Positions 11,755 through 64,000 of a stretch of DNA of 64,000 bases are shown piece by piece. Both the position numbers and the translations under genes were made by a program. Numbering within the stretch: the stretch's first letter is position 1; every line of letters starts with the position of its first letter. Source of the stretch: Escherichia coli (GTDB lineage Bacteria; Pseudomonadota; Gammaproteobacteria; Enterobacterales; Enterobacteriaceae); assembly GCF_009931435.1 (NCBI RefSeq), contig NZ_CP043414.1; one strand, 5' to 3'. The notes under the pieces were generated by a model. The model searched no databases, was not told the DNA's origin, and saw only the letters and a list, made by a program, of their open reading frames with translations.

Positions 11755-13997
<2,243 letters not shown>

Positions 13998-14010
13998 TTC
14001 CGGTCTCCTG

Positions 14011-14766
14011 TCAGAACTTATAACCACGATGCAGCGCCACAACCCCTGCCGTCAGGTTGTAATAGTCGACACTTTCGAATCCAGCATCCTGCATCATAGC
14101 TTTCAGGGTGTCCTGATCGGGATGCATGCGGATAGATTCAGCAAGATAACGGTAGCTGTCAGCGTCGTTCGCGACCAGTGAGCCAATACGCGGCAGCACA
14201 TGGAAGGAGTAAGCGTCATAGGCCTTACTTAACGGCTCGATAATCGGCTTCGAGAACTCAAGCACCAGCAGTCGGCCGCCAGGTTTCAGAACGCGATACA
14301 TTGAACGCAGAGCTTTATCTTTGTCAGTGACGTTACGCAGACCAAACGAAATGGTGATGCAATCAAAGGTGTTATCCGGGAACGGCAGCGCCTCAGCGTT
14401 CGCCTGAACATACTCAACGTTGCCAATCACACCAATATTACGCAGCTTCTCGCGGCCCATTTTGAGCATGGATTCATTGATATCAGCAAGGACCACTTTG
14501 CCAGTTTCACCCACCAGGCGGGAGAATTTCGCTGTCAGGTCGCCAGTACCGCCTGCCAGATCCAGCACGGTCTGCCCGCGGCGTACGCCACTGCAATCAA
14601 TCGTGAAGCGTTTCCACAAACGATGTATGCCAAAAGACATCAAATCATTCATGACATCGTATTTCGATGCCACGGAATGGAAAACGTGGGCGACCATATC
14701 CGCTTTTTGTTCCTTCGCGACGGTCTGAAAACCAAAGTGCGTCGTTTCTTGTGACTTATCCACCAT
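14011..14766 (-). CDS. ubiE: Ubiquinone/menaquinone C-methyltransferase UbiE
   Basis: 251-aa [49 protein letters not shown]...; SAM-binding LDLAGGTGD motif. Confidence 0.95.
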
Positions 14767-20440: not shown

Positions 20441-20452
20441 CAGGGGCCTGCA

Positions 20453-21943
20453 ATGTTTGAAAGTGAACTTTTAACTCAGGGGTTTTCGACATTACTCAGT
20501 AATCCTCAGGCGCTGCTGTTTGCCACGTTTGGAGTGATGCTGGGTATTATGATTGGCGCTCTGCCTGGCCTGACAGCGACCATGGGTGTGGCGATTTTGC
20601 TGCCTTTCACCTACGGCATGGAGCCTGTTTCTGGCTTGTTGATGATTTGCGGTGTCTTTTTTGGTGGTGTGTATGGTGGTTCTATCACCGCAATTTTGCT
20701 CAAAATTCCCGGTACACCTGCCGCCGCTGCCACCGCCATTGACGGTTATGAGTTAACGAAGCAGGGAAAAGCCGGGCTGGCATTAAGTGCCGCCACGTTC
20801 TCTTCTTTTAGCGGTGGAACGCTCAGCATTATCGTATTGATGTTTCTCTCTCCGGTCCTTGCTAGTTGGGCGTTGAAATTTAGTGCCTCGGAGTCCTTCG
20901 CCCTGGCAACCTTCGGACTGAGCATTATTGCCAGTATTTCCGGTGAGTCGCTGATTAAAGGGCTGATCGCCGGGATTGGCGGATTAATGATCGCAACGAT
21001 AGGCCTCGATCCGATGGGCGGTTTTCCACGCTTTACGGGCGGGTTTGTGGAACTGATGAATGTGCCATTTATCCCGGTGATGATTGGTCTGTTTGCTGCT
21101 TCAGAAGCGTTCCGTTCTATGGAACAAAATCAGCATATTCGTCAGAGCGCGAACGTGGCTATCGGCAGTCTGTTACTGCCCTGGCAAACGCTACGCCGCA
21201 TCGCATTAACCATTTTGCGCTCATCAGGATTAGGGGTTTTTATCGGCATGATCCCCGGTGCGGGGGCAGATATTGCAGCTTTTGTTGCCTATAACGAAAC
21301 TCGTCGTTTCAGTAAGACGCCTGAAAACTTTGGTAAGGGTGAGATTAAGGCGGTGGCCTCCTGTGAGGCAGGCGCGAATGGCTGCACCGGTGGCGCATTG
21401 TTACCTATGCTGACGTTGGGGATCCCAGGCGATGCGGTAACTGCCATCATGCTGGGCGCGTTAACGTTACAAGGGATGCAGCCAGGCCCACTGATGTTTA
21501 CCGACCACGGCGATATGGTTTATACGTTATTTGTCGGCATGATCTTCTGTTACTTCATGCTGCTAGTTCTTGGACTGCTCTCTTTGAAAGTCATCGGTAA
21601 CGTGGTGAAAATTCCCGGCAATATTCTCACACCGATGATCCTCGCACTTTGTGTGGTCGGGACTTATGCGTTGAACAATAGCCTGTTTGATGTTGGCATT
21701 ATGCTGATTGCAGGCGTGGTGGGCTATTTCATGCAAAAAGGGGGATATCCGGCATCACCCGTAGTGCTGGCATTGATTATGGGGCCAATGGCGGAAAGTA
21801 ATTTTCGCCGTGCGCTGTCGCTTTCAGGGGGGTCACTCGACTTCCTGTATACCCGACCGATAACCCTGGCATTGCTGACACTGGCAGCCTTTACGCTACT
21901 GACGCCAATAATACGCAAAATTATGCGCTTACGGCGTCAGTAA
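20453..21943 (+). CDS. Tripartite tricarboxylate transporter large permease (TctA family)
   Basis: 496-aa polytopic membrane ORF MFESELLTQGFSTLLSNPQALLFATFGVMLGIMIGALPGLTATMG...; TctA-like. Confidence 0.75.
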   Translation: MFESELLTQGFSTLLSNPQALLFATFGVMLGIMIGALPGLTATMGVAILLPFTYGMEPVSGLLMICGVFFGGVYGGSITAILLKIPGTPAAAATAIDGYELTKQGKAGLALSAATFSSFSGGTLSIIVLMFLSPVLASWALKFSASESFALATFGLSIIASISGESLIKGLIAGIGGLMIATIGLDPMGGFPRFTGGFVELMNVPFIPVMIGLFAASEAFRSMEQNQHIRQSANVAIGSLLLPWQTLRRIALTILRSSGLGVFIGMIPGAGADIAAFVAYNETRRFSKTPENFGKGEIKAVASCEAGANGCTGGALLPMLTLGIPGDAVTAIMLGALTLQGMQPGPLMFTDHGDMVYTLFVGMIFCYFMLLVLGLLSLKVIGNVVKIPGNILTPMILALCVVGTYALNNSLFDVGIMLIAGVVGYFMQKGGYPASPVVLALIMGPMAESNFRRALSLSGGSLDFLYTRPITLALLTLAAFTLLTPIIRKIMRLRRQ

Positions 21944-24245: not shown

Positions 24246-24914
24246 ATGACGCAATCCATTTTTCAGGCTCAACCCTTTGAATTACCTTTTGATCCGCGCA
24301 CAACTGCACTGGTCATGATCGACATGCAGCGTGACTTTGTCGAAGCAGGGGGCTTCGGTGAGGCACTGGGCAATGATGTTTCACTGGTACGCACGGCTAT
24401 CGCACCATGTACAGAGGTGCTGGCAGCCGCACGTCAAAAAGGAATTATGGTTATTCATACTCGTGAAGGCCATCGTGCAGACTTAAGCGACTGCCCGCCA
24501 GCCAAACTGACGCGCGGCGGAAAAACCTTTATTGGTGAACCAGGACCGATGGGACGCATTCTGGTCAGAGGTGAAGCGGGTCATGACATCATTCCTGAAC
24601 TGTACCCAGTGACAGGCGAACCGGTGATTGATAAGCCCGGTAAAGGCGCTTTTTATCAAACCGACTTACATCTGATTTTGCAAAACCACGGTATCAAGAC
24701 GCTGATAGTTTGTGGTGTAACAACCGAAGTTTGCGTAACCACCACCGTGCGCGAAGCAAATGACCGTGGCTATGAATGCATTATCCCGGAAGATTGTGTC
24801 GGCTCATATTTCCCGGAATTCCAGAAATATGCCCTCGAGATGATCAAAGCACAAGGTGCCATTTTCGGTTGGGTGAGTGATTCCAAAGCCATTATTGCAG
24901 GTCTGGAAGGCTAA
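24246..24914 (+). CDS. Isochorismatase-family cysteine hydrolase (RutB / N-carbamoylsarcosine amidase-like)
   Basis: 222-aa ORF; family motifs ALVMIDMQRDF (Asp), conserved Lys and LIVCGVTTEVCV (catalytic Cys); GGAG RBS. Confidence 0.75.
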   Translation: MTQSIFQAQPFELPFDPRTTALVMIDMQRDFVEAGGFGEALGNDVSLVRTAIAPCTEVLAAARQKGIMVIHTREGHRADLSDCPPAKLTRGGKTFIGEPGPMGRILVRGEAGHDIIPELYPVTGEPVIDKPGKGAFYQTDLHLILQNHGIKTLIVCGVTTEVCVTTTVREANDRGYECIIPEDCVGSYFPEFQKYALEMIKAQGAIFGWVSDSKAIIAGLEG

Positions 24915-24919
24915 CGCCG

Positions 24920-25780
24920 ATGGTACAGGTGACGCTTTGCGCATCATCGTTGGGATATCTTTTCCCGCAAAATGAAACGCAAGATTTACGTCTGCATAGT
25001 GCTTTTAAACATGCGGTAAATCTGTATTCAGAAGCGGGAACATTCATCACTCTGTTGTGTGCGCAAACGTATCTGAATCTCCCTGATGCCGCCAGAGTCA
25101 ACCTGCCTGAGAATTGGGACTGGCGAAGAGAGATTGCCCATTCAGATCCCATTCAGTTAACCCCAGGCTTGTTACAAACACCTCGCTTTTGCGTGGTGCT
25201 TCATAACACAACACTTTGGCAACCGCCATTTGTGGGGGGAATGCTGACACTTGAGGCATTCCCTTTGGTTTTCCAGCACTACCCAACGATGGCATCGCAA
25301 CGGCTTTTATTTTGTCTGGAGCATAACGTTCAAAGCACATTGCACCTGCCGGATAGTCTCACGCACCAGGGATTAGCGATTATGGAACATCCAGATGCAC
25401 TGGAACGCCAGGTGCCACAACTGATCGGCTTTGGTAAAGGCTTAACGCCCGATGGAGATGACTATTTGTTGGGCTATCTGGCAGCGCTCTGGTTATGGCA
25501 ACTCCCTGCAACACTTGCCGATCATCAATACCGGTTGCAGCAGGCAATTGATCAACATGCGCACAACACCACGGATATCAGTCGTCATTATCTGGAGCGT
25601 GCGCTTCAGGGGCATTTTTCAGAACCGATTTGCCAGTTACTCGCACAACTGGTTGGGGGCGCATCGGAAATGACAATCGCATCCTGTGCAGAACAGGTCA
25701 TGCAATTTGGCGCAACGTCAGGAGTAGATTGCCTTGCAGGAATGCTGCATGGCTTTCGAACCCTGAACACCATGAATTGA
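24920..25780 (+). CDS. DUF2877-family protein (YlbF/YahE-like)
   Basis: 286-aa ORF starting 6 bp after the hydrolase stop; resemblance to YlbF/YahE proteins that accompany FdrA-like genes. Confidence 0.55.
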   Translation: MVQVTLCASSLGYLFPQNETQDLRLHSAFKHAVNLYSEAGTFITLLCAQTYLNLPDAARVNLPENWDWRREIAHSDPIQLTPGLLQTPRFCVVLHNTTLWQPPFVGGMLTLEAFPLVFQHYPTMASQRLLFCLEHNVQSTLHLPDSLTHQGLAIMEHPDALERQVPQLIGFGKGLTPDGDDYLLGYLAALWLWQLPATLADHQYRLQQAIDQHAHNTTDISRHYLERALQGHFSEPICQLLAQLVGGASEMTIASCAEQVMQFGATSGVDCLAGMLHGFRTLNTMN

Positions 25781-25874
25781 TTTCAACCTTTTCTCCCGTA
25801 GCCCATTTATGGCGCTACACGGGGATGCTTTGCCCGAATTTTGCTATCGGGCGGAATAAAACAGGCGTAACAGC

Positions 25875-27434
25875 ATGAAAGTTAAATATAAAGTTTTCAG
25901 CAATCTTTATCAGGACTCGGTTTCTCTGATGCAGATTTCCGCGCAAATCAGTAAGTTGCCCGGTATTCAACAGGCCTCGGTCGTCATGGGAACACCCAAT
26001 AATCTCGAACAATTGCGCGATGCGGGTCTGGGTAACGAAATCAACGCCAGTCCCAATGATTTAGTGATTGCAGTCATGGGTGAAGAAGATATTTGCAATG
26101 AAGCACTGATACTGGCCCAGCAACGTCTGACCAGCAAACCCGATGATGAAACGGATAGTGGCATTAAAACACCGGAAAATGTCAGCCTGGAAATGGCACT
26201 GGAAGCCGACACCGAAGCCAACCTGGCACTCATTTCTGTACCGGGAGACTACGCCGCCGCCGAAGCAATTAAAGCGTTAAACCTCGGAATGAACGTGATG
26301 ATGTTCAGCGATAACGTCAGTATCGGGCAGGAAAAATCCATCAAAACACTTGCCCGAGAACGTCAGCGCATCGTAATGGGACCTGATTGTGGAACCGCCA
26401 TTGTTAACGGCATTCCGTTAGGCTTCGCTAATGTGGTGAAACGCGGAGCAATTGGTGTTATTGGCGCGTCAGGCACCGGGCTACAGGAAGTGACTTGCCG
26501 AATCGACCAGCTCGGAGCGGGTATTTCTCAGGCGTTGGGAACAGGCGGGCATGATCTCAGTGAAGAGATTGGTGGAATATCGATGCTCTTCGCTTTAGAT
26601 GCGCTGGCGCAAGACGATGAAACTCGCGTGATTGTGCTTATTTCAAAACCGCCTTCACCGATCGTTGCCCGGGCTATTCTGGAGCGCGCCGAGGCTTGTG
26701 GAAAACCCGTGGTGGTGAATTTCCTCGGTGCGAATCCGCATGATCTGGCACGTCCCAATATCACCGCTGCCGCCACACTTGCCAGCGCCGCAAATATCGC
26801 CGTGGCAGTACTGAATGATCAGCCACTTCCGACTGTCGAGACCGAGATTTCCTGCGACGATCTCACAATGTTACAAAACGCCTGCCAGCGTCTGCCAGCC
26901 CATCGCCAGGCGATACGCGGTGTTTTCGCCGGAGGAACCTTCTGTTACGAAGCGCAACTTATCTGCCAGCAAAAGGGATTCAGCGCCGCCTCCAATACGC
27001 CAGTTGCGGGTAATCGTACTCTGGCAAATATCTGGCAAAGCAAAGGTCACACGCTGATCGATATGGGCGACGATGATTTCACCCGTGGCAAACCGCATCC
27101 AATGATCGACCCGACTCTGCGCAATCAACGTCTGCTCAACGAACTCAACGACTCACACACTGCCGTCGTGTTATTCGACCTGGTACTTGGTTATGGCGCT
27201 TCCGCTACGCCTGCCAGCGAATTACTGGACCAACTTTCACACATCGACATGAATAACGCACCGTTGCTGATTGCGCACGTTTGCGGAACGGAAGCTGATC
27301 CGCAAATACGCAGTCAGCAGATAAGCGCACTACAAAATGCGGGCATCATCATTGCCAGCAGCAATGCACAGGCGGCGCTATGGGCCAGCGCCGTTGCGCA
27401 GACTCAGTTGCAGAAAAAGGGGCTAAACGCATGA
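25875..27434 (+). CDS. FdrA-family protein (CoA-ligase-like; FdrA/YahF paralogue)
   Basis: 519-aa ORF MKVKYKVFSNLYQDSVSLMQISAQ...; conserved blocks NVMMFSDNV, MGPDCGT, GVIGASGTGLQE and GKPHPMIDPTLRNQ match remembered FdrA. Confidence 0.75.
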   Translation: MKVKYKVFSNLYQDSVSLMQISAQISKLPGIQQASVVMGTPNNLEQLRDAGLGNEINASPNDLVIAVMGEEDICNEALILAQQRLTSKPDDETDSGIKTPENVSLEMALEADTEANLALISVPGDYAAAEAIKALNLGMNVMMFSDNVSIGQEKSIKTLARERQRIVMGPDCGTAIVNGIPLGFANVVKRGAIGVIGASGTGLQEVTCRIDQLGAGISQALGTGGHDLSEEIGGISMLFALDALAQDDETRVIVLISKPPSPIVARAILERAEACGKPVVVNFLGANPHDLARPNITAAATLASAANIAVAVLNDQPLPTVETEISCDDLTMLQNACQRLPAHRQAIRGVFAGGTFCYEAQLICQQKGFSAASNTPVAGNRTLANIWQSKGHTLIDMGDDDFTRGKPHPMIDPTLRNQRLLNELNDSHTAVVLFDLVLGYGASATPASELLDQLSHIDMNNAPLLIAHVCGTEADPQIRSQQISALQNAGIIIASSNAQAALWASAVAQTQLQKKGLNA

Positions 27435-28855
27435 ATACCTTATTTAATCAGCCTTTGAAGGTCGTGAACGCGGGACTACACAGTTTTGCTGACAATATTC
27501 AACATGCCGGGGGAAGCGCAATTGCACTCAACTGGCAGCCACCAGCACAAGGCGATATTGACGCTGGATTGGATCTGGCATCGTTGCTACGTCATCCACT
27601 AGTAGAAAATGCCAATCAAATCGCCATGACACGTTATCTCGAAGCACAACCCGTGCTGGTGGATGTCATGCTCGCTAAAGAGGCCATTCCAGCAATGGCT
27701 GAACAAAAACGTATTTTGCACTCTGGTCCGCCGATTGCCTGGGAAGAGATGTGTGGTCCGGTAAAAGGGGCGATTATTGGTGCCATGCTGTACGAAGGTT
27801 GGGCCACCAGCCAGCAAGACGCTGAAAACCAGATAAACACAGGCGAAATCGACCTTGCCCCTTGTCATCATTATCACGCGGTTGGACCAATGGCAGGCAT
27901 CATCAGCCCGTCGATGCCGTTATGGGTGGTAGAAAACAAAACCAACGGCCACCGTACTTTTAGCAATTTCAATGAAGGTCTGGGTAAGGTTCTCCGTTTT
28001 GGTGCCAATAACGATGAAGTTCTCAATCGTCTGGCCTGGATGCGCGATGAACTGGCACCGGCAATGAAAGCAGCAATCGCACAACACGGCGAGCTGGAAC
28101 TCAAGCCATTAATGGCGCAGGCGCTGCATATGGGGGATGAAGTTCATAACCGCAATGCTGCCGCTACCGGTTTGCTGATTAAGCGCCTGCTCCCGGCATT
28201 GCTGGCCTGCTCTATTCCACAGGAACATATCCAGCGCGTCGTGGCATTTATCACCAGTAACGATCACTTCTTCCTCAATCTGTCGATGGCTGCCTGTAAA
28301 GCGATGATGGATGCCGCCGCCAATGTACCGTTCAGTTCAATGGTTACGGTGATGGCGCGTAACGGGGTGAATTTTGGTATTCGGCTTTCCGGTACTGGCG
28401 ATCGCTGGTTCCAGGCTCCTGCCAATGCAGTTGAAGGTCTGTTCTTCCCCGGATTTGGCGTCGACGATGCCGCTGCTGACCTGGGTGATAGCGCAATTAC
28501 CGAAACCGCAGGTGTGGGTGGCTTCGCGATGGCGTCATCTCCAGCGATCGTCAAATTTGTGGGAGGCACCCCTGCCGATGCCACCAATAACAGCCGTAGG
28601 ATGCAAGCAATCACCCTCGGTGGTAACCCCGCATTTACACTTCCTGCCCTCAATTTTGCCCCCACCGCAGCAGGGATTGATGCGCGTAAAGTGACCGATC
28701 GCGGCATTTTACCGGTCATCAATACGGGTATCGCCCACAAACAAGCGGGGGTCGGGCAAATTGGTGCCGGGATCACCACTGCGCCGATGGCCTGTTTTGT
28801 CGCCGCTGTACGTGCACTGTCTGAGATCGTCGCAAAGGAGAACCATCATGGTTAA
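27431..28855 (+). CDS. DUF1116-family protein (YlbE/YahG-like)
   Basis: Track ORF 27380..28855 trimmed to MNTLFNQPLKVVNAGLHSFADNIQ...; ATGA overlap with the FdrA-like stop. Confidence 0.65.
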   Translation: MNTLFNQPLKVVNAGLHSFADNIQHAGGSAIALNWQPPAQGDIDAGLDLASLLRHPLVENANQIAMTRYLEAQPVLVDVMLAKEAIPAMAEQKRILHSGPPIAWEEMCGPVKGAIIGAMLYEGWATSQQDAENQINTGEIDLAPCHHYHAVGPMAGIISPSMPLWVVENKTNGHRTFSNFNEGLGKVLRFGANNDEVLNRLAWMRDELAPAMKAAIAQHGELELKPLMAQALHMGDEVHNRNAAATGLLIKRLLPALLACSIPQEHIQRVVAFITSNDHFFLNLSMAACKAMMDAAANVPFSSMVTVMARNGVNFGIRLSGTGDRWFQAPANAVEGLFFPGFGVDDAAADLGDSAITETAGVGGFAMASSPAIVKFVGGTPADATNNSRRMQAITLGGNPAFTLPALNFAPTAAGIDARKVTDRGILPVINTGIAHKQAGVGQIGAGITTAPMACFVAAVRALSEIVAKENHHG

Positions 28856-29804
28856 GCCACTGGCTGTTGTCGCAGTTGGCGGCAATGCGCTCATTCAGGA
28901 CGAGCAACGCAATAGTATTCCCGATCAATATGTTGCAGTGATGGAAAGCGTGCAGCATATCGTTGATATGGTTGAAGCCGGATGGGACCTGGTGCTTACC
29001 CACGGTAATGGCCCGCAGGTGGGCTTTATTCTGCGCCGCTCTGAACTCGCCAGTAACGAAGTTTCTCCGGTTCCACTTGATTACGCCGTGGGTGATACAC
29101 AAGGTGCAATTGGCTACATGTTCCAGAAAGCGCTGCATAACGAATTGGCTCGCCGTGGCATAAACAAACCGGTAATTGCGCTGGTGACACAAACGCGAGT
29201 CTGCCCACATGACGATGCTTTCACCAGCCCCAGTAAACCGATTGGCGCGTTTCTCGATGAAGCAACGGCCCTACAACGCCAACAGCAACTCGGCTGGACG
29301 CTGATGGAGGACGCCGGGCGTGGTTGGCGGCGTACAGTTCCCTCTCCTGCGCCACTGGAAATTATTGAGCACGACACCATCGCTCACCTGGTGCGCCAGG
29401 GATATCTGGTTATTGCCTGCGGCGGTGGCGGTATTCCGGTGGTGCGAGACGGACAACAACTGAAAGGTGTGGAAGCCGTGATCGATAAAGATCTGGCCTC
29501 CGCGCTGCTCGCCAGTCAGTTAGGCGCAGATCTGCTGGTGATCCCCACCGGTGTAGAAAAAGTGGCGATTAACTTTGGTACACCACAACAACAGTGGCTC
29601 GACGCTATCAGCGTTGCCGAAGCGCAAACGCTGTTACGGGAAGGTCAGTTTGGTGTCGGCAGTATGCAGCCCAAAGTGGAAGCCATTGTTGATTTCATCA
29701 ATGCCAGCCAACAACAAGGCAAACAGGCCAGCGGCCTGATTACTTCACCGCAAACCATAAAAGCAGCCCTTTCGCATCAGAGCGGCACATGGATAACCCT
29801 TTAA
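28848..29804 (+). CDS. Carbamate kinase-family protein (ArcC/YahI-like)
   Basis: Track ORF 28761..29804 trimmed to MVKPLAVVAVGGNALIQDEQ... after AAGGAG RBS; amino-acid-kinase fold signatures (AVGGNAL, THGNGPQVG, VIACGGGGIPV); overlaps upstream gene by 8 nt. Confidence 0.75.
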   Translation: MVKPLAVVAVGGNALIQDEQRNSIPDQYVAVMESVQHIVDMVEAGWDLVLTHGNGPQVGFILRRSELASNEVSPVPLDYAVGDTQGAIGYMFQKALHNELARRGINKPVIALVTQTRVCPHDDAFTSPSKPIGAFLDEATALQRQQQLGWTLMEDAGRGWRRTVPSPAPLEIIEHDTIAHLVRQGYLVIACGGGGIPVVRDGQQLKGVEAVIDKDLASALLASQLGADLLVIPTGVEKVAINFGTPQQQWLDAISVAEAQTLLREGQFGVGSMQPKVEAIVDFINASQQQGKQASGLITSPQTIKAALSHQSGTWITL

Positions 29805-29820
29805 TTCTCTGGAGAACTCA

Positions 29821-30210
29821 ATGACTACAACACTTTTAGCCGTTAACGGAACGCTGATGCGTGGCCTGGAACTCAACCCAAATATGCAAAAAGCGGGCGG
29901 CATTTTTGTCCGTGAAGACCGAACTGACGCCCATTACAGGTTGTGGAGTATTAACGATCGTCATCCGGGAATGATTCGCGTGAATGAAGGAGGAACACAC
30001 GTCGACGTAGAAATTTGGCAATTACCACTGACCAGTTTTGCCGCTCTGTTAATGAGCGAACCCGCTGGGCTGGCAATTGGCAAAATCAAACTTGCCGATG
30101 GTAGCGAAGTGCTGGGCGTACTGGCAGAAAACTGGCTGACCGAAGGCCAACGGGAAATTACAGAACTGGGTAGCTGGCGCAAATACACCGGGCATTTTCA
30201 TACTGTGTAA
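29821..30210 (+). CDS. Small protein, possibly gamma-glutamylcyclotransferase / AIG2-like fold
   Basis: 129-aa ORF MTTTLLAVNGTLMRGLELNPNM...; the N-terminal [YV]G[ST]LM/K motif resembles GGCT-like proteins; weak assignment. Confidence 0.4.
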   Translation: MTTTLLAVNGTLMRGLELNPNMQKAGGIFVREDRTDAHYRLWSINDRHPGMIRVNEGGTHVDVEIWQLPLTSFAALLMSEPAGLAIGKIKLADGSEVLGVLAENWLTEGQREITELGSWRKYTGHFHTV

Positions 30211-30235
30211 CGCGCATTTTTAAAGGGAACATACT

Positions 30236-31459
30236 ATGCGTAAAAAAGAAGAGAATCTGAATACAGCATCAGGATTGCGTATTGCCATGATTTTACTGGG
30301 TATTGCCGTCACACCTGTGCTGTTGTCATCCTCAAGCCTCGGCAATCAACTTTCCAGCGGCAGTTTAATTAGCGTCGTATTGTTAGGCGGCGTCATTCTG
30401 ACCTTACTTTCAGCCATCACCATTAGCGTGGGAGAAAAAGCCCGCCTGCCAACGTATGGCATTGTGAAATATTCGTTTGGCGAAAAAGGGGCCATCGCCA
30501 TTAACATTTTGATGGCGATAAGTCTGTTCGGCTGGATTGCCGTTACCGCCAATATGTTTGGTCATTCGGTACATGACTTACTGGCTCAACATGGACTGGA
30601 AGTTCCACTAGCACTGTTAGTGGCTGCTGGCTGTGTCATTTTTGTCGCCTCTACAGCATTTGGTTTTGCCGTTCTGGGAAAAATTGCCCAGGTTGCCGTG
30701 CCGGTTATCGCGCTGGTGCTGTGTTACATCCTCTATGTGGCAACCCATACCGAAGTGGCAGCACCAGCGGTGATTGTGGAGATGAATACGGGTGTCGCTG
30801 TTTCCACCGTTGTTGGCACCATTATTGTGCTGGTTGCCACACTGCCTGATTTCGGTAGTTTTGTGCATAACCGCAAACATGCGCTGATTGCCGCAGGCGT
30901 GACGTTTCTGGTTGCCTACCCTCTGCTCTACTGGGCGGGAGCAACGCCGAGCGCCATTAGTGGTCAGGGATCTTTACTGGGTGCGATGGCGGTATTCGGT
31001 GCGGTTCTGCCCGCGGCGCTGTTGTTGATTTTCGCCTGCGTCACCGGTAACGCGGGCAATATGTTCCAGGGCACGCTGGTGGTTTCCACACTGCTTACCC
31101 ACTTTCCCAAATGGCAGATTACCGTGGCGCTGGGTATCCTTTCCGCCATCGTAGGCAGTCTGGATATTATGGCGTGGTTTATTCCGTTTCTGCTGTTCCT
31201 GGGTATCGCCACGCCACCCGTTGCCGGAATTTATATCGCTGACTTTTTCCTTTATCGCCGTAATGGCTATCAAGAGTCAGTGTTAGCCCAGGAGTCACAG
31301 ATCAAAGTGCTGACATTCGCAGCATGGATCATAGGTGCAGCGGTTGGCTTTATGACCGTAAAAGGCTTATTCACCCTGACGACAATCCCTTCGGTAGACT
31401 CGATTCTGGTGGCATGTATCGCGTATGCGATTCTCAGTCGGGCAAGTCAACGCCGCTAA
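30236..31459 (+). CDS. Polytopic membrane permease, possibly nucleobase-cation symporter (CodB/NCS1-like)
   Basis: 407-aa highly hydrophobic ORF with about 12 predicted TM stretches; family assignment tentative. Confidence 0.5.
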   Translation: MRKKEENLNTASGLRIAMILLGIAVTPVLLSSSSLGNQLSSGSLISVVLLGGVILTLLSAITISVGEKARLPTYGIVKYSFGEKGAIAINILMAISLFGWIAVTANMFGHSVHDLLAQHGLEVPLALLVAAGCVIFVASTAFGFAVLGKIAQVAVPVIALVLCYILYVATHTEVAAPAVIVEMNTGVAVSTVVGTIIVLVATLPDFGSFVHNRKHALIAAGVTFLVAYPLLYWAGATPSAISGQGSLLGAMAVFGAVLPAALLLIFACVTGNAGNMFQGTLVVSTLLTHFPKWQITVALGILSAIVGSLDIMAWFIPFLLFLGIATPPVAGIYIADFFLYRRNGYQESVLAQESQIKVLTFAAWIIGAAVGFMTVKGLFTLTTIPSVDSILVACIAYAILSRASQRR

Positions 31460-31536
31460 TTCCTGGGTATACTCAGGCAATGATTACGGCTGAATCTGGA
31501 GAGATTCAGCCACTTTACCACTGACCAGGGAGCCTT

Positions 31537-32433
31537 ATGTTCATCTCAGACGAAACGCTTCGTGTTATTCATCTGGTCGCCAGACACCAGAGCATTACCA
31601 CCGCAGCCGAACAGTTAAATAAAGTCCCTTCCGCCATCAGTTACACCATCAAGAAAGTGGAAGAGAGCCTGGGCGTTGAACTGTTCATTCGTAAGGGACG
31701 CTATATTGAATTATCTCCGGCGGGGAGTTACTTCATCGAACATAGCAAAACTATTCTGGGCGACCTGGAAGCATTAAAGCGCAACACAGTGCTGATTCAC
31801 GATGGTATTGAACGTGAACTGACAATTGCGGTGAACAATATTATTCCTGGTGATTTGCTGGTGGCATTTATTCGAGATTTTGAACGGCAATTCACATCAA
31901 CAACACTGACGGTAGATCTTGAGGTATACAACGGCTGCTGGGATGCGCTGTACAGTAAGCGTGCTGATCTGGTCTACGGTGCTCCTCATGCAGTGCCAAG
32001 CAGTGAAGGCATCATTAGCGAACCGGTCGGACAAATGGAATGGGATTTTGTCGTCAGCCCACTCCACCCACTGGCAGCGAAGCGGCATCCATTAGAAAAC
32101 AGTGAATTGCGTCATTATCCAGCGGTTTGTATCCGCGATACCTCCGTTAACTTCCCCCCGATGCAAGCCTGGCTGTTGGAAGGACAAAAACCGATTTTTG
32201 TTCCTGACTTCGCTACGGCAATCGCCTTAATAGAACAAAACGTCGGTATTGGTTATATTCCACATCATCTGGCATTGCCGTTATTGAACAGCGGTAAATT
32301 GCTTAAAAAGCCAATGCGCGAACATAAACACGCCACCAAGTTATTTCTTGCCGCTCGTTCCGATGGTATGGGCAAAGCCTGTCAGTGGTGCATAGAATAT
32401 TTAAGAAATCCGCAATTAATTTTCTGTTCCTGA
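31537..32433 (+). CDS. LysR-family transcriptional regulator
   Basis: 298-aa ORF with N-terminal LTTR helix-turn-helix SITTAAEQLNKVPSAISYTIKKVEESLGVELFIRKGR; GGGAG RBS. Confidence 0.75.
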   Translation: MFISDETLRVIHLVARHQSITTAAEQLNKVPSAISYTIKKVEESLGVELFIRKGRYIELSPAGSYFIEHSKTILGDLEALKRNTVLIHDGIERELTIAVNNIIPGDLLVAFIRDFERQFTSTTLTVDLEVYNGCWDALYSKRADLVYGAPHAVPSSEGIISEPVGQMEWDFVVSPLHPLAAKRHPLENSELRHYPAVCIRDTSVNFPPMQAWLLEGQKPIFVPDFATAIALIEQNVGIGYIPHHLALPLLNSGKLLKKPMREHKHATKLFLAARSDGMGKACQWCIEYLRNPQLIFCS

Positions 32434-44854: not shown

Positions 44855-45703
44855 ATGAACAACATATTAGGCTCATCAATTAATATGCCCTGTACACTTT
44901 TCGAAACTATTACTTTATTCGATGATTTCTCTGCTGATGATATGCAGTATGGGGATATGGAAGAACAAGATTTTCTCTCACTCGGCTTAAGCGACATCTC
45001 TGCAAAAGTTGATCCTTACCGCCTCATTAAATACCATTTTCCTGGGCCGAATTCTACTTATGGTGCTTTTAGTATTCCAACTTCTGGAACAAAAATATCA
45101 CAAAGTGAATGTATTGATATTTTATTTGCAGAAATGAAAGATCTGGCAAAAATGTTTTCCTTTTTTGGACAATACAAAACACTCATCCAGGATCTGATTG
45201 ATCATTTTAGATATGGAAATGGCAACAGTTTCCATAGCCAGGAATTGAACTTATCTTTTCATGAACGAATAAACAAATATGATTATAATAGCCCAATACG
45301 TGTAATCAAAGAATGTATCGAAAATGATATTTCTTCAACACCTACGATAGGATACCGGCCTCTTCTCCTACAAAAGATTAAGACCGAATTACTTTCATCA
45401 AGACTAAATAAATTCAATGATTTTAAAGATAATTTTAATGGCCTGGGAATCAGCATTCATGATATCTCAGCTCAAAAAATATCTCTTTTAAATTTTCAAA
45501 AATATCCTATGGGCTGGAGCGCTACCATTCATTTCATAGCACAAGACCACTTTGGTTTGGATGTGACTGATATAAAAAACAAGATTTACAACAAGTATAG
45601 ATTTTTTCGCATATGGTTCTTTTTACAACGGCATAAAGACTTTGCTTTCAAACCTTTTTTTACCAATTTTAACACTATCGAAAGAATCGAAAATTATCTA
45701 TGA
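44855..45703 (+). CDS. Hypothetical protein, AT-rich accessory cassette gene A (282 aa, no recognisable domain)
   Basis: ORF MNNILGSSINMPCTLFETITLFDDFSADDMQYGDMEEQDF... preceded by strong RBS AAAGGAG; AT-rich codon usage; no signal peptide, no Walker motif. Confidence 0.6.
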   Translation: MNNILGSSINMPCTLFETITLFDDFSADDMQYGDMEEQDFLSLGLSDISAKVDPYRLIKYHFPGPNSTYGAFSIPTSGTKISQSECIDILFAEMKDLAKMFSFFGQYKTLIQDLIDHFRYGNGNSFHSQELNLSFHERINKYDYNSPIRVIKECIENDISSTPTIGYRPLLLQKIKTELLSSRLNKFNDFKDNFNGLGISIHDISAQKISLLNFQKYPMGWSATIHFIAQDHFGLDVTDIKNKIYNKYRFFRIWFFLQRHKDFAFKPFFTNFNTIERIENYL

Positions 45704-46197
45704 AAAGCAAACTCCAGAAAATTATATTATATTTATTTCTTCTATGCTGCATCTATAATTTATGGACATTGCGTCCTGTACAGATTTTGTATACATACTC
45801 TGATGCTGGCAATTCAGTCTTTCTGGTCGTTGATCATCTGCCATGGACTGATAGCGATAAAATAAATTGGTATCTGAAGCATCAGGATGAAATTAAAAGT
45901 CAAAATCCCCTACCAGAAGGTAGTTGGCATACCTGGTATGTTATTGATATCGGTAATGGCTTCACTGACTATAAAAAATATATCGAAGGGCCGTATGAAG
46001 ATCTCTACTGTTTCCCGACGATTAAGAGCAATGATAATTGCATCGTAAAAAACTATTTAATGGTTATTAATGAATATCCTTACCGTAATACTCATTTTTT
46101 TATTGCTGATAACAATGAGTATCAACTAACCCAGGAAAATAAGATAGAGCGAGTGTTCAACCCGCATGACTTTGAAAAAGACAATTTTCAGCAATAA
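45700..46197 (+). CDS. Hypothetical membrane-anchored/secreted protein, cassette gene B (165 aa)
   Basis: ORF MKSKLQKIILYLFLLCCIYNLWTLRPVQ... with N-terminal hydrophobic anchor; start overlaps gene A stop (ATGA); AT-rich. Confidence 0.6.
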   Translation: MKSKLQKIILYLFLLCCIYNLWTLRPVQILYTYSDAGNSVFLVVDHLPWTDSDKINWYLKHQDEIKSQNPLPEGSWHTWYVIDIGNGFTDYKKYIEGPYEDLYCFPTIKSNDNCIVKNYLMVINEYPYRNTHFFIADNNEYQLTQENKIERVFNPHDFEKDNFQQ

Positions 46198-54083: not shown

Positions 54084-54271
54084 TATGGATTGCCTGTAAA
54101 GTTCATCGCTTTCTGCTTTCTATCATCGCAGGAGAAGACGTAAAAGCAAGCGTTTAGCGACTCTTTATGAAGTCTGAAAAATGAGGAATTGCTGCGAGTA
54201 TAACGCTTACACGTGGGGATTTATGTTTTGCTGATAGTTTCGTGATCGGCACCTCGCGCCAGGATGGCTTT

Positions 54272-56299
54272 ATGCACTATCGCAATGTGGTTTGTTTGTT
54301 GTCTTTTTTAGTTCCGTCAGCGTGGGGATGCTCGCTCGGTGAACCTGATCATAATATTTACCAGAAACAGGGAAAAGGCGTGGTATACCTGCGCCCTAAT
54401 GAAGAGACAAATCTTTCGTTACCGGAAGTAAATTACCAGCGACTGCGTCGTTTACCTGATTTATTCATTGTTCCTGACACCCAGGACGATGGGGAAAAAG
54501 AACCGCCGTTAAACGACCTTACCACCGATTATATTGATCAGGGCGCATGGGCCTGGTATCCAAATTATGCTTACTTTAGCGATGGCCGTTTTGTTATTTA
54601 TGCGGGCAAGATTGTACAAAATCCATCTGGTTATCCACCGGTCGATGTAGCCTCGTTCCATTCATGGGGCGATTTTGCCGTCGATAAAAACAGCATTTAT
54701 TACAAAGGCCAACGGACAGATGAAAATGGCGGCAAGCAACGCGTCGATGAAAAAACGCTGCGCAAAGTAGGATTAGGTAGCCGTTGGATGCCTGATCGGC
54801 TGGGATTGGTGCTACGTGACGCGCATTTTCTTTATATCGATGGGCACCGTTTTGATAACCCAGAGAGTTTTTCCGTGATCGCGCAAAAATCCTGGGGTCA
54901 ACAAGGGAAATTCGCTTCAACGTTTTTTCCCTGCATTGCCTACCCCTTTGGCCCGTGGGATATGCTTACCCGCACACGAACAAAGTTGCTGATCAATGGA
55001 GAGCAACTGGATGCAGATCCGGACAATTTTTCTGTCGTTCGCTGGATGCCCGGCACCCTGTTTAGCTGGCGTGATAAACACGGCGAGCATCGTAAAGTCA
55101 TTGATCAGGTTCGTTTGGCAAGGAATGAAGATATATCCCGGCAATGTGACAACTTTACGCTGTTAGAAAAAAAGGTGTTCTGGCGCAAGGGGCCAGATTG
55201 TGAGCAGGAAGAATTACCCAGTCTCGACCCGGAGCAGTTTCACCCGATCAGTGACATCGTGGCGCAGTATCAGGACAAGTTGTATGCAATCAGTAAGACC
55301 CCCTTCGGTGAAAATCAGTTGGAGATCATCACCCTGGATAACCCGAATCTGATCATCAATAAACGTTTTAATGCCGGAAGGCATCATGGCTATTTAATCA
55401 CCCGATCAACAAATTGGGACGGACATGAGAAAGACGGTTTACAGGTGTTTGAATCCGTTGGCCCACTGATACTGCTGGACTACCGTGTGCCGAATGAAGC
55501 AGATGCACACCGTGGCAATAACCCGCATTACAAAAAATGGTTTGCTCGCGACGATCGTTACGTTTATGCATTCGATGGTGCGCAGCTTTGGCGTTACCCT
55601 ACGCAATATCCCAAAGCGGCACGTATCAAAGCCGCTAAAGACGACTGGCTGAACGTCAGCCTTAGCCAATTGGACGGTGAGATAATGAAAGATGGCTCAT
55701 TTACTCCCACTGGCATCAAGCACACATCCTCTTTAAAACCCGCCAAGGCATACGAAGATGGGGACAATGAATCTTCATTTATCGTAAATAAATCGGGAGT
55801 AGGCTGGCGAAAAGCGCTTTCACCCGACCTGCAATGGAGTGAGTGGCATTACCTGGAAGGCATTTATCCAAAAAAGTTACATCTGATTACCGAACGTATT
55901 GCACAGTACAAAAACCAACTCTACGTCGTCAGGCGCTCGCATTTTGGAGAAGATCGGCTAGAAATCATAGAGTTGGAGTCATCTTTGCCCATCAAAAATA
56001 AACCGATAAATACGGGCAAGGAGCGTCATTACTTTCTGCAAAGTACCCGACAAAAACAGGATGTGCAGGTATTCACCAGCAGCGGTGCGCTGATAGCAAC
56101 GGAGCGCTTTGCTTATGACGATAGCTATGTCTACACCTGGATTGACGATCAGCTTTATCGCACACCCTCCCCCTGCCCAGCGAAAACATACGTCAGAGAA
56201 AAGAATGTCCGTGAAATTCATAACAGCGACATTATTATTCCGGTGACGGAGGAATCGTGCCGGAACGCAGCAGCAGACGGGCAAACTTTGAAGCCCTGA
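54272..56299 (+). CDS. Large secreted/lipoprotein-like repeat protein with DKNYY-like motifs, accessory insertion
   Basis: Track ORF 54242..56299; likely start at the Met giving MHYRNVVCLLSFLVPSAWGC (signal peptide with Cys); repeated D-K-N-x-x-Y-Y-like motifs and an internal tandem duplication. Confidence 0.6.
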   Translation: MHYRNVVCLLSFLVPSAWGCSLGEPDHNIYQKQGKGVVYLRPNEETNLSLPEVNYQRLRRLPDLFIVPDTQDDGEKEPPLNDLTTDYIDQGAWAWYPNYAYFSDGRFVIYAGKIVQNPSGYPPVDVASFHSWGDFAVDKNSIYYKGQRTDENGGKQRVDEKTLRKVGLGSRWMPDRLGLVLRDAHFLYIDGHRFDNPESFSVIAQKSWGQQGKFASTFFPCIAYPFGPWDMLTRTRTKLLINGEQLDADPDNFSVVRWMPGTLFSWRDKHGEHRKVIDQVRLARNEDISRQCDNFTLLEKKVFWRKGPDCEQEELPSLDPEQFHPISDIVAQYQDKLYAISKTPFGENQLEIITLDNPNLIINKRFNAGRHHGYLITRSTNWDGHEKDGLQVFESVGPLILLDYRVPNEADAHRGNNPHYKKWFARDDRYVYAFDGAQLWRYPTQYPKAARIKAAKDDWLNVSLSQLDGEIMKDGSFTPTGIKHTSSLKPAKAYEDGDNESSFIVNKSGVGWRKALSPDLQWSEWHYLEGIYPKKLHLITERIAQYKNQLYVVRRSHFGEDRLEIIELESSLPIKNKPINTGKERHYFLQSTRQKQDVQVFTSSGALIATERFAYDDSYVYTWIDDQLYRTPSPCPAKTYVREKNVREIHNSDIIIPVTEESCRNAAADGQTLKP

Positions 56300-59424: not shown

Positions 59425-59639
59425 TTGCTGATTGACCGTAAAGAAAGATGCGCTACATACAAGTGTAGCACCGTTTATTCTCTGTAAATTCCTTATTACG
59501 ACGGCGTGAAACGCCTGTCAGGATCCACTGCCAGACCTCATTTTACGGTTTGCGCAGGCGTCTACGTTTCACCACAACACTGACATCGCTCTGGCAAGGA
59601 TGTTAGGATGGACCACGGATGATAATGACGGTAACAAGC

Positions 59640-60581
59640 ATGTTAGACAATGTTTTAAGAATTGCCACACGCCAAAGCCCACTTGCACTCTGGCAGGCAC
59701 ACTATGTCAAAGACAAGTTGATGGCGAGCCATCCGGGCCTGGTCGTTGAACTGGTACCGATGGTGACGCGCGGCGATGTGATTCTTGATACGCCGCTGGC
59801 GAAAGTAGGCGGAAAAGGCTTATTTGTAAAAGAGCTGGAAGTCGCGCTCCTCGAAAATCGCGCCGATATCGCCGTACATTCAATGAAAGATGTGCCGGTT
59901 GAATTCCCGCAAGGTCTGGGGCTGGTCACCATTTGCGAGCGTGAAGATCCTCGCGATGCCTTTGTGTCCAATAACTATGACAGTCTGGATGCGTTACCTG
60001 CAGGCAGTATCGTCGGGACGTCCAGTTTACGTCGCCAGTGCCAACTGGCTGAACGCCGCCCGGATCTGATTATCCGCTCCCTGCGCGGCAACGTCGGCAC
60101 TCGCCTGAGCAAACTGGATAACGGCGAATACGATGCCATCATTCTTGCCGTAGCCGGACTAAAACGTTTAGGTCTGGAGTCACGCATTCGCGCCGCGTTG
60201 CCACCCGAGATTTCTCTTCCGGCGGTAGGACAAGGTGCGGTCGGTATTGAATGCCGCCTTAATGATACTCGCACTCGCGAGCTGCTTGCCGCGCTGAATC
60301 ACCACGAAACTGCACTGCGTGTTACCGCAGAACGCGCCATGAATACCCGTCTCGAAGGCGGATGTCAGGTGCCAATTGGTAGCTACGCCGAGCTTATTGA
60401 TGGCGAAATCTGGCTGCGTGCGCTGGTCGGCGCGCCGGACGGTTCGCAGATTATTCGCGGTGAACGCCGCGGTGCGCCGCAAGATGCCGAACAAATGGGG
60501 ATTTCGCTGGCAGAAGAGCTACTGAATAACGGCGCGCGCGAGATCCTTGCTGAAGTCTATAACGGAGACGCCCCGGCATGA
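59640..60581 (+). CDS. hemC: Porphobilinogen deaminase (hydroxymethylbilane synthase) HemC
   Basis: Track ORF 59619..60581 trimmed to [34 protein letters not shown]... (313 aa). Confidence 0.95.
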
Positions 60582-61318
60582 GTATCTTGGTCACCCGCCC
60601 GTCTCCCGCTGGAGAAGAGTTAGTGAGCCGTCTGCGCACACTGGGGCAGGTGGCCTGGCATTTTCCGCTGATTGAGTTTTCTCCGGGTCGACAATTACCG
60701 CAACTTGCTGATCAACTGGCAGCGCTGGGGGAGAGGGATCTGTTGTTTGCCCTCTCGCAACACGCGGTTGCTTTTGCCCAATCACAGCTGCATCAGCAAG
60801 ATCGTAAATGGCCCCGACTACCTGATTATTTTGCCATTGGACGGACCACCGCACTGGCGCTACATACCGTAAGCGGACAGAAGATTCTCTACCCGCAGGA
60901 TCGGGAAATCAGCGAAGTCTTGCTACAATTACCTGAATTACAAAATATTGCGGGCAAACGTGCGCTGATATTACGTGGCAATGGCGGTCGTGAGCTAATT
61001 GGGGATACCCTGACGGCGCGCGGTGCTGAGGTCACTTTTTGTGAATGTTATCAACGATGCGCAATCCATTACGATGGCGCAGAAGAAGCGATGCGCTGGC
61101 AATCCCGCGAGGTGACGACGGTCGTTGTTACCAGCGGTGAAATGTTGCAGCAACTCTGGTCGCTGATCCCACAATGGTATCGTGAGCACTGGTTACTACG
61201 CTGTCGACTATTGGTCGTCAGTGAGCGTTTGGCGAAACTCGCCCGGGAACTGGGCTGGCAAGACATTAAGGTCGCCGATAACGCTGACAACGATGCGCTT
61301 TTACGGGCATTACAATAA
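60578..61318 (+). CDS. hemD: Uroporphyrinogen-III synthase HemD
   Basis: 246-aa [37 protein letters not shown]...; ATGA overlap with hemC. Confidence 0.95.
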
Positions 61319-61339
61319 CTCTCATAACAGGAAGCCATA

Positions 61340-62545
61340 ATGACGGAACAAGAAAAAACCTCCGCCGTGGTTGAAGAGACCAGGGAGGCCGTGGACACCA
61401 CGTCACAACCTGTCGCAACAGAAAAAAAGAGCAAGAACAACACCGCATTGATTCTCAGCGCGGTGGCTATCGCTATTGCTCTGGCGGCGGGCGTCGGTTT
61501 GTATGGCTGGGGTAAACAACAGGCCGTCAATCAGACTGCCACCAGCGATGCCCTGGCTAACCAACTTACGGCACTGCAAAAAGCCCAGGAGAGCCAAAAA
61601 GCCGAGCTGGAAGGCATTATCAAGCAACAAGCTGTACAGCTTGAGCAAGCGAATCGTCAGCAAGAAACGCTGGCAAAACAGCTGGATGAAGTCCAACAAA
61701 AGGTCGCGACTATTTCCGGCAGCGATGCTAAAACCTGGCTGCTGGCTCAGGCTGATTTCCTGGTGAAACTCGCCGGAAGGAAGCTGTGGAGCGATCAGGA
61801 CGTCACGACCGCTGCAGCGTTGCTGAAAAGTGCAGATGCCAGCCTGGCGGATATGAATGACCCGAGTCTGATTACCGTTCGTCGGGCAATTACCGATGAT
61901 ATCGCCAGCCTTTCTGCGGTATCGCAGGTGGATTATGACGGCATCATCCTTAAGCTGAACCAGCTTTCTAATCAGGTAGATAACCTGCGTCTGGCCGATA
62001 ATGACAGCGATGGTTCACCGATGGATTCCGACGGTGAAGAGCTTTCCAGTTCCCTCAGCGAATGGCGTATCAATCTACAAAAAAGCTGGCAGAACTTTAT
62101 GGACAACTTCATTACGATTCGCCGTCGTGATGACACCGCCGTACCACTGTTAGCACCGAATCAGGATATCTATCTGCGCGAAAATATTCGCTCCCGCCTG
62201 CTGGTCGCGGCACAAGCCGTACCGCGTCATCAGGAAGAGACTTACCGCCAGGCGCTGGAGAACGTCTCCACCTGGGTTCGTGCTTATTACGATACTGATG
62301 ATGCCACCACCAAAGCGTTCCTCGACGAGGTGGATCAGCTAAGTCAGCAAAATATCTCGATGGATCTCCCGGAAACCCTGCAAAGCCAGGCGATGCTGGA
62401 AAAACTGATGCAGACTCGCGTGCGTAACCTGCTGGCACAACCGGCAGCGGGGACAACGGAAGCTAAACCTGCACCTGCACCTGCACCTGCACCTGCACCT
62501 GCACCGCAAGCTGATACTCCGGCAGCCGCGCCGCAAGGAGAATAA
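61340..62545 (+). CDS. hemX: HemX (putative uroporphyrinogen-III C-methyltransferase-like membrane protein)
   Basis: 401-aa [54 protein letters not shown]...; coiled-coil middle region and Pro-Ala repeat tail. Confidence 0.92.
62468..62497 (+). repeat. Tandem hexanucleotide repeat (CCTGCA)x5 encoding (PA)n near the hemX C-terminus
   Basis: Five perfect tandem CCTGCA units read directly; encodes [10 protein letters not shown]. Confidence 0.85.
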
Positions 62546-62547
62546 CC

Positions 62548-63744
62548 ATGCTAAAAGTGTTGTTGCTCTTTGTTTTGCTGATTGCGGGGATAGTGGTTGG
62601 CCCGATGATTGCCGGTCATCAGGGTTACGTATTGATTCAGACCGACAACTACAATATCGAAACCAGCGTCACTGGCCTGGCGATTATTTTGATTCTGGCG
62701 ATGGTAGTGCTGTTTGCCATTGAGTGGCTACTGCGGCGGATCTTCCGCACAGGCGCACACACCCGTGGGTGGTTTGTCGGACGTAAGCGTCGCCGTGCCC
62801 GTAAGCAGACCGAACAGGCGCTGCTGAAACTAGCGGAAGGCGATTATCAGCAAGTTGAAAAGCTGATGGCGAAAAATGCCGATCACGCTGAACAACCGGT
62901 GGTGAACTATCTGCTGGCTGCCGAAGCCGCGCAACAACGCGGTGATGAAGCACGCGCCAACCAACATCTGGAACGCGCAGCGGAGCTGGCCGGCAACGAC
63001 ACAATTCCGGTAGAAATCACCCGTGTACGTCTGCAACTGGCCCGTAATGAAAACCATGCAGCACGTCACGGCGTTGATAAGCTGCTGGAAGTTACGCCAC
63101 GCCATCCGGAAGTATTACGTCTGGCGGAACAGGCGTATATCCGCACTGGTGCATGGAGTTCGCTGCTGGATATCATCCCATCAATGGCAAAAGCCCACGT
63201 TGGCGATGAAGAGCATCGTGCAATGCTGGAACAACAGGCATGGATTGGCCTGATGGATCAGGCGCGTGCCGATAACGGTAGCGAAGGTTTGCGTAACTGG
63301 TGGAAAAACCAAAGCCGGAAAACGCGTCATCAGGTGGCGTTACAGGTGGCAATGGCGGAACATCTTATTGAATGTGACGATCATGATACTGCCCAGCAAA
63401 TTATCATCGACGGCCTGAAACGCCAGTATGACGATCGCCTGCTGCTGCCGATCCCGCGTCTGAAAACCAATAACCCGGAACAGCTGGAAAAAGTGCTGCG
63501 CCAACAGATCAAAAACGTGGGCGATCGCCCGTTGTTGTGGAGCACACTGGGTCAGTCGCTGATGAAGCACGGCGAATGGCAGGAAGCATCGCTCGCCTTC
63601 CGCGCGGCGCTGAAACAACGTCCGGACGCCTACGATTACGCATGGCTTGCCGACGCGCTGGACAGACTGCACAAGCCGGAAGAAGCCGCAGCGATGCGTC
63701 GCGATGGCTTGATGCTAACGTTGCAGAACAACCCGCCACAGTAG
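62548..63744 (+). CDS. hemY: HemY (TPR-containing inner-membrane protein of the hem operon)
   Basis: 398-aa ORF MLKVLLLFVLLIAGIVVGPMIAGHQGYVLIQTDNYNIETSVTGLAIILIL... Confidence 0.95.
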   Translation: MLKVLLLFVLLIAGIVVGPMIAGHQGYVLIQTDNYNIETSVTGLAIILILAMVVLFAIEWLLRRIFRTGAHTRGWFVGRKRRRARKQTEQALLKLAEGDYQQVEKLMAKNADHAEQPVVNYLLAAEAAQQRGDEARANQHLERAAELAGNDTIPVEITRVRLQLARNENHAARHGVDKLLEVTPRHPEVLRLAEQAYIRTGAWSSLLDIIPSMAKAHVGDEEHRAMLEQQAWIGLMDQARADNGSEGLRNWWKNQSRKTRHQVALQVAMAEHLIECDDHDTAQQIIIDGLKRQYDDRLLLPIPRLKTNNPEQLEKVLRQQIKNVGDRPLLWSTLGQSLMKHGEWQEASLAFRAALKQRPDAYDYAWLADALDRLHKPEEAAAMRRDGLMLTLQNNPPQ

Positions 63745-63755
63745 CTCTTTCTCAC

Positions 63756-63790
63756 CCGGAGGCAAGCACCTCCGGGGCCTTTCTGATATA
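63756..63790 (+). terminator. hemCDXY operon terminator
   Basis: Hairpin CCGGAGGCAAGCACCTCCGG followed by a T-rich tract directly after the hemY stop. Confidence 0.55.
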
Positions 63791-63791
63791 T

Positions 63792-63998
63792 AAAAAAACG
63801 CCTGCTCTTATTACGGAGCAGGCGTTAAAACAGGTCTGTATGACAACAAGTGGGTGCTTCACTCAACGTTGTGTCCATGGTGTCTGATGAGGCATAAGCG
63901 ACATCTGTCAGTGGACGATAAGCACCGTAAACGGCTCTGCGTCATTCCGGAGTTTATGAGGCACTAAGGCGAACATAAGAGATGGAATGAGCATCTAC
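63792..63998 (-). ncRNA. glmZ: Small regulatory RNA GlmZ (SraJ)
   Basis: Reverse strand reads GTAGATGCTCATTCCATCTCTTATGTTCGCCTTAGTGCC...ACAGACCTGTTTTAACGCCTGCTCCGTAATAAGAGCAGGCGTTTTTTT, matching remembered GlmZ with its terminator hairpin and U-tract; position downstream of hemY agrees. Confidence 0.8.
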
Positions 63999-64000
63999 TC

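Follow-up and report, generated by a model that had tools for sequence, protein, structure and literature searches.

The glmZ small RNA gene convergent with hemY at the end of a 64-kb Escherichia coli window

GlmZ, whose gene was earlier named sraJ or ryiA, is a well-studied small RNA (sRNA) of E. coli that turns on GlmS, a cell wall precursor enzyme. The gene is located between aslA and hemY, the RNA occurs as a primary species of 207 nt and a processed species of about 151 nt, and it acts by unmasking the Shine-Dalgarno (SD) sequence (PMC4152352). Processing depends on RapZ and RNase E and responds to GlcN6P, as documented for GlmZ of E. coli K-12, which is identical to the RNA described here (PMC4152352, PMC4737144). 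RapZ binds to the central stem-loop SL2, which is decisive for cleavage by RNase E; mutation of G132, G137, and G139 blocks this RapZ/RNase E cleavage, and U134 of GlmZ corresponds to C131 in GlmY (PMC4737144). The single-stranded region of 26 nt is the main binding site of Hfq and contains the RNase E processing site at about nt 151, the oligo(U) tail contributes to Hfq binding, and the third stem-loop, SL3, mediates termination of GlmZ (PMC4737144).

The second sRNA of this kind, GlmY (Tke1/SroF, RF00128), has homologous stem-loops SL1 and SL2, binds RapZ as well, and has conserved sequence blocks in common with GlmZ. However, its single-stranded region is 12 nt long and lacks complementarity to glmS, it is not cut by RNase E, and it is encoded at a different site, purL-glrK, with sigma-54/sigma-70 promoters (PMC4737144, PMC4152352). 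Salmonella and Yersinia have a glmZ of the same sRNA family with the same linkage to hemCDXY, but there transcription starts from sigma-54 promoters activated by GlrR, alone or together with an overlapping sigma-70 promoter, whereas glmZ of Escherichia has a single constitutive sigma-70 promoter. In E. coli, this promoter was mapped experimentally within −40 to +1; its −35 element has three matches to the consensus, and the sequence upstream of −40 is dispensable (PMC3045617).

Identity of the segment downstream of hemY

The first-pass annotation of the window, by which we mean the entire stretch of 64,000 nt analyzed here, had recognized GlmZ on the reverse strand of the last ~210 bp and had proposed an Rfam search for GlmZ_SraJ on that strand as a check. 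The search bore the identification out. The covariance model RF00083 (GlmZ_SraJ) matched the minus strand from 63998 down to 63792 with 218.4 bits compared to a gathering score of 60 (E = 2.1e-57), which is 3.6 times the gathering score and far above chance, and the match was not truncated but covered model positions 1 to 214 of 214. GlmZ_SraJ was the sole strong match in a permissive cmscan of positions 60000-64000 against all 4227 Rfam families, and it was recovered again when the whole window was scanned at gathering thresholds. Two weak matches were set aside as chance: ncr1175 (23.7 bits versus a gathering score of 60), which stems from the terminator hairpin of GlmZ on the opposite strand, and isrG (15.1 bits versus 100). 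On the minus strand, the matched segment starts with GUAGAUGCUCAUUCC and ends with GCAGGCGUUUUUUU; the read-out from 63998 down to 63792 is GUAGAUGCUCAUUCCAUCUC...AACGCCUGCUCCGUAAUAAGAGCAGGCGUUUUUUU. The coordinates of the gene, its modules, and its neighbors are compiled in Table 1, and nucleotide n of GlmZ corresponds to window position 63999 − n.

Table 1. Features of glmZ and its surroundings (window coordinates)
Feature	Position	Strand	Basis
glmZ gene, full-length 207-nt primary GlmZ sRNA	63792..63998	−	Rfam, K-12 identity, E. coli genomes
SL1, GlmZ nt 1-65	63934..63998	−	Rfam consensus-structure line, module map of PMC4737144
SL2, GlmZ nt 73-146, central stem-loop	63853..63926	−	Rfam structure line, PMC4737144
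Single-stranded region, GlmZ nt 147-172, CACUUGUUGUCAUACAGACCUGUUUU, 26 nt	63827..63852	−	Length and sequence check
SL3 intrinsic terminator, GlmZ nt 173-202, plus U-tail to nt 207	63792..63826	−	Terminator scan, fold
Last 2 nt of the glmZ promoter region (GA; −2, −1)	63999..64000	−	Alignment with K-12 and 2013C-4282
Second hairpin, CCCGGAGG-CAAGCA-CCUCCGGG, 8-bp GC-rich	63755..63776	+	Fold, alignment
hemY CDS, 398 aa, last gene of hemCDXY	62548..63744	+	ORF list; annotated hemY in NZ_CP027579.1 and K-12
hemX	61340-62545	+	ORF list
hemD	60578-61318	+	ORF list
hemC	59619-60581	+	ORF list
cyaA	56707-59253	−	ORF list

Alignment with glmZ of E. coli K-12 MG1655 (b4456) revealed identity at 207 of 207 positions, and all 207 are invariant across the window, K-12 MG1655, and strain 2013C-4282. 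The K-12 gene thus has the same 207 nt, the same position relative to hemCDXY, and the same SL1, SL2, 26-nt single-stranded region, and SL3 with U7, with no difference within the RNA. Differences from K-12 begin 3′ of the U-tract (A instead of G at window positions 63789 and 63782), and further ones fall in the 3′ end of hemY.

Since SL1 and SL2 are common to GlmZ and GlmY, the segment could in principle encode the paralogous decoy of the same Rfam clan (CL00011), an RNA that sequesters RapZ instead of pairing with glmS. Indeed, one overlapping, lower-scoring match to the same clan was obtained, and blocks of SL1 and SL2 are conserved in an alignment with K-12 GlmY. However, the top clan member is GlmZ_SraJ with 218 bits, and clan competition in Rfam picks GlmZ. 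While K-12 glmZ is 100% identical, the alignment with K-12 glmY is broken up by numerous mismatches and gaps, and no similarity is left from the start of the single-stranded region on. Furthermore, the glmS-complementary region of 26 nt is present here, as opposed to the 12 nt without complementarity in GlmY (PMC4737144), and the neighboring gene is hemY and not purL-glrK. None of the features that distinguish GlmY (the 12-nt region, the lack of glmS complementarity, the purL-glrK site) is found in this sequence. The probability of a GlmY gene at this position is therefore practically nil, and we regard GlmY as excluded by the perfect match to K-12 glmZ and the divergent alignment with K-12 glmY.

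The degree of conservation also speaks for GlmZ. When the 207-nt sequence was compared to 5426 complete E. coli genomes, it was at least 99% identical in 5424 of them and had no match in the other 2. The number of matching places was 5427; one of them lies on a plasmid record, and two copies are present in at least one genome. A 301-nt query comprising GlmZ, the intergenic spacer, and the end of hemY dropped to 95 to 99% identity in most genomes, and large chunks of the window were only 98.5 to 98.8% identical to the best of the 5426 genomes. Hence, GlmZ is far more conserved than its flanks, as expected of a functional sRNA.

In sum, the minus strand from 63998 to 63792 is almost certainly glmZ of an E. 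coli-type chromosome, located at the canonical hemY-aslA intergenic site and presumably working by the same mechanism as in K-12, and no sequence evidence against the identification was found. The element is fully known already, and its identification is correct yet ordinary. Its value is one of annotation, in that the sequence following hemY need no longer count as unexplained; it contains a complete copy of a regulatory RNA of cell envelope precursor homeostasis that has been characterized in depth. Automatic annotation often misses this gene. Most E. coli records in RefSeq that were annotated with PGAP have no feature under glmZ ("none"), and in the K-12 RefSeq record, glmZ is annotated over 172 of the 207 nt only (NC_000913.3, 3986432-3986603), an interval that stops just before the terminator hairpin. 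As a consequence, genome scans based on ORF tracks keep flagging the terminator of glmZ as unaccounted for.

Modules of the RNA and pairing with glmS

The module boundaries of the RNA follow the structure line of the RF00083 alignment, in which no noncanonical pairs were flagged. The core of the SL1 stem reappeared in the minimum free energy (MFE) as well as in the centroid fold, and the single-sequence MFE fold recovered the SL1 core, the apical part of SL2, and SL3; the base of SL2 was not reproduced exactly. The lateral-bulge residues of SL2, namely, G132, U134, G137, and G139, were checked by position and are all present. The length of the single-stranded region (26 nt) equals the published value for GlmZ, and the RNase E site at about nt 151 is predicted to map near window position 63848.

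SL3 has a stem of 11 bp (AACGCCTGCTC/GAGCAGGCGTT, 63826..63797) with an 8-nt loop, CGUAAUAA. It is followed on the minus strand by seven T's at 63798..63792, the first two of which close the stem, and the hairpin folds with −19.8 kcal/mol (z = −6.3). The terminator hairpin and U-tract that had been pointed out at first reading are both there, and the hairpin string GCCTGCTCCGTAATAAGAGCAGGC is found exactly at 63823..63800.

With regard to the target, nt 150 to 169 of GlmZ (63849..63830) are predicted to pair with positions −40 to −22 of K-12 glmS (UACAGGUUGACCGACAACGAU) in two helices with −19.2 kcal/mol. The glmS untranslated region (UTR) used for this duplex is that of K-12, and of GlmZ, only the single-stranded region was used. 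Pairing of GlmZ with glmS is known to open a hairpin that masks the SD sequence, and the experimentally described interaction region matches the predicted −40 to −22 (PMC4152352). In a shuffle control, 54 of 1,000 shuffled versions of the single-stranded region paired with the glmS UTR at least equally well. Thermodynamic complementarity to glmS is therefore only modestly better than chance; it is consistent with pairing but is no independent proof of it, and the claim of pairing rests on the published experiments with the identical RNA. A duplex prediction with full-length GlmZ (RNAduplex against the glmS UTR) was discarded; it ignores intramolecular structure and returned a meaningless end-to-end duplex of −62 kcal/mol.

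The K-12 RNA is identical and its mechanism is established; from sequence identity, we infer the same for the copy described here. In this model, a constitutive sigma-70 promoter just past the end of the window would give rise to the 207-nt RNA with its three stem-loops. Hfq would bind both the U-tail and the single-stranded stretch of 26 nt, and nt ~150 to 169 would pair with the 5′ UTR of glmS (−40 to −22). This anti-antisense pairing would unmask the SD sequence, and as a result, translation would be turned on, the glmS mRNA would be stabilized, and the level of glucosamine-6-phosphate synthase would rise. If GlcN6P is ample, the adaptor RapZ would bind to SL2 and hand GlmZ over to RNase E, and a cut in the single-stranded region (at about nt 151) would remove the pairing site and leave an inactive species of ~151 nt. 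If GlcN6P is scarce, the homologous decoy GlmY would sequester RapZ, and full-length GlmZ would build up. Of the partners in this circuit, glmS, glmY, rapZ, hfq, and rne are all encoded outside the 64-kb window (in K-12, glmS is located ~73 kb past the position equivalent to the window end). Since the promoter lies outside as well, we infer expression and the complete circuit.

Promoter and hairpins on either side of the gene

The window had been described as stopping 2 nt upstream of the 5′ end of the sRNA, with the promoter outside. This is indeed the case: GA (64000-63999) is all that precedes the +1 G at 63998, and these two positions (−2 and −1) match K-12. In K-12 and 2013C-4282, the alignment continues upstream as ...ATGTTATTTCCCG(A/G)TTCTCTGTGGCATAATAAACGA before the initiating G, and the promoter there reads ATGTTA-N18-(TGG)CATAAT-AAACGA-G(+1), i.e., ATGTTA-N18-TGGCATAAT-N6-G. 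This sequence agrees with the published description of the −35 element (PMC3045617). A simple sigma-70 scan of a relative missed this experimentally mapped promoter, whose −35 element matches at 3 of 6 positions, and negatives of this scanner are therefore uninformative.

With the promoter beyond the window, and with a best identity of 98.5 to 98.8% that makes the strain somewhat unusual among the 5426 genomes, one might imagine that the locus is an inactive remnant, kept but unexpressed, as would be the case if this strain had a disrupted promoter. Against this stand the perfect conservation of the RNA itself, the agreement with K-12 at the 2 nt upstream of +1, and the region from −60 to +20, which keeps an identity of at least 95% in 5420 of 5426 E. 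coli genomes. Because of the perfect conservation, a silent remnant is very unlikely.

On its other side, glmZ is flanked by the heme genes. The ORF assigned to hemY aligned with hemY as annotated in E. coli records of 99.7% identity, and the order cyaA, hemC-hemD-hemX-hemY, glmZ is the same in K-12 and other strains; in these, aslA and aslB then follow. The aslA side is beyond the window and known from relatives only. As for the sRNA being immediately downstream of hemY, the position was given correctly in the first-pass annotation, but the orientation needs to be amended: glmZ is on the opposite strand, convergent with hemY, and 47 nt separate the hemY stop codon (63744) from the 3′ end of GlmZ (63792). 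An additional ORF at 63537..63887 (plus strand, 116 aa, GTG start) was treated as spurious; it overlaps hemY out of frame and extends into glmZ. The length of hemX is polymorphic, with 401 aa here and in 2013C-4282, 393 aa in K-12, and 392 aa in N96.

GlmZ had also been put forward as the explanation of the terminator-like structure after hemY. Of the two hairpins located there, GlmZ accounts for the one with the U-tract; the other, at 63755-63776, had been overlooked. It begins 11 nt past the hemY stop codon, folds with −17.4 kcal/mol (z = −3.5), and is identical in K-12 and 2013C-4282. Its 3′ flank is GCCUUUCU on the plus strand and UGAGAAAG on the minus strand. The hairpin failed a simple terminator scan, as the T-run is too short. 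Nevertheless, because GCCUUUCU follows on the plus strand, this hemY-oriented hairpin with its weak U-tract is probably the terminator of hemY (hemCDXY) and a likelier one than the GlmZ hairpin.

The weakness of this terminator (UUUCU) and its failure in the scan make read-through to the next hairpin plausible, and the hairpin at 63792-63826 might then be mainly a bidirectional terminator for hemCDXY and belong to hemY as much as to glmZ. It has an A7 on its 5′ side on the plus strand, and the plus-strand fold is even better than that of the minus strand (−21.6 kcal/mol, z = −7.8). However, the sequence after the hairpin on the plus strand is UUAAAACA, which has no U-run and makes it a poor intrinsic terminator in that direction, and the scan reported the hairpin on the minus strand only. 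Furthermore, the hairpin is modeled within GlmZ by Rfam and is described as SL3 of GlmZ (PMC4737144). A mainly bidirectional role is therefore unlikely and would in any case add to the assignment of the hairpin to GlmZ rather than replace it. Since only 47 nt separate the two genes and the U-tract of the hemY hairpin is weak, it is imaginable that read-through from hemCDXY runs antisense over the GlmZ terminator and the glmS-pairing region and thereby couples transcription of the heme operon to the synthesis or stability of GlmZ. We regard this as a long shot; if true, the coupling of hemCDXY and GlmZ would come about through either transcriptional interference or the formation of an antisense duplex.

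Remainder of the window

That no tRNA gene is visible in the rest of the window, as stated in the first-pass annotation, was confirmed with ARAGORN, which found 0 tRNA and tmRNA genes over the entire 64 kb. In K-12, the rrnA operon is ~49 kb away from glmZ, and the present window begins inside trkH. Interspersed accessory genes that K-12 lacks add ~14 kb and thereby push rrnA and its tRNAs just outside the window.

The accessory genes were found at several sites. Between rmuC and udp (16417-21943, plus strand), a cluster encodes an IclR regulator, a 2-dehydro-3-deoxygalactonokinase-like protein, a KDPGal-aldolase-like protein, and a tripartite tricarboxylate transporter (TctC/TctB/TctA); these names come from the annotation of strain R32_14_1F. 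A catabolic cluster that is not present in K-12 is located between ysgA and metE (24246-32433, plus strand). It encodes a cysteine hydrolase (BiuH/RutB-like, below the cutoff), an AllH/DUF2877 protein, an FdrA-like acyl-CoA synthetase, a DUF1116 protein, carbamate kinase, an NCS1 (cytosine-permease-like) transporter, and a LysR regulator, and at least 80% of the cluster is present in ~1495 of the 5426 E. coli genomes. An insert between rarD and corA (44855-46197, plus strand) encodes a YPO3983-family protein (TIGR03034, 396 bits) and a DUF943 membrane protein, neither of which had a match in PADLOC.

Between lptM (yifL) and cyaY, we found an orphan ORF of 685 aa (54242-56299, plus strand) that K-12 does not have at this site. 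The ORF gave no match in Pfam, NCBIfam, or PADLOC and is listed as a "hypothetical protein" (WP_024211977.1) in strain N96. Its product has an N-terminal lipobox-like sequence (...PSAWGC) and repeated D(K/D)xxxYY-like motifs. The GC content of 45 to 50%, compared to 53 to 57% in the flanks, suggests horizontal acquisition.

A second Rfam family was matched at 13392-13643 on the minus strand, where RF02757 ("Erse") scored 308.6 bits over its full length compared to a gathering score of 138. This match falls within the 3′ portion of the ubiJ (yigP) ORF (13392..14042, minus strand) and corresponds to EsrE, the sRNA of the yigP locus (PMC5581919).

The best partner genome of the window differs along its length: it is the goat strain R32_14_1F for positions 1-39500, and different strains take its place for positions 39001-64000. 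Together with the best identity of 98.5 to 98.8%, this suggests that the DNA derives from an E. coli lineage that is mosaic or has been sampled sparsely.
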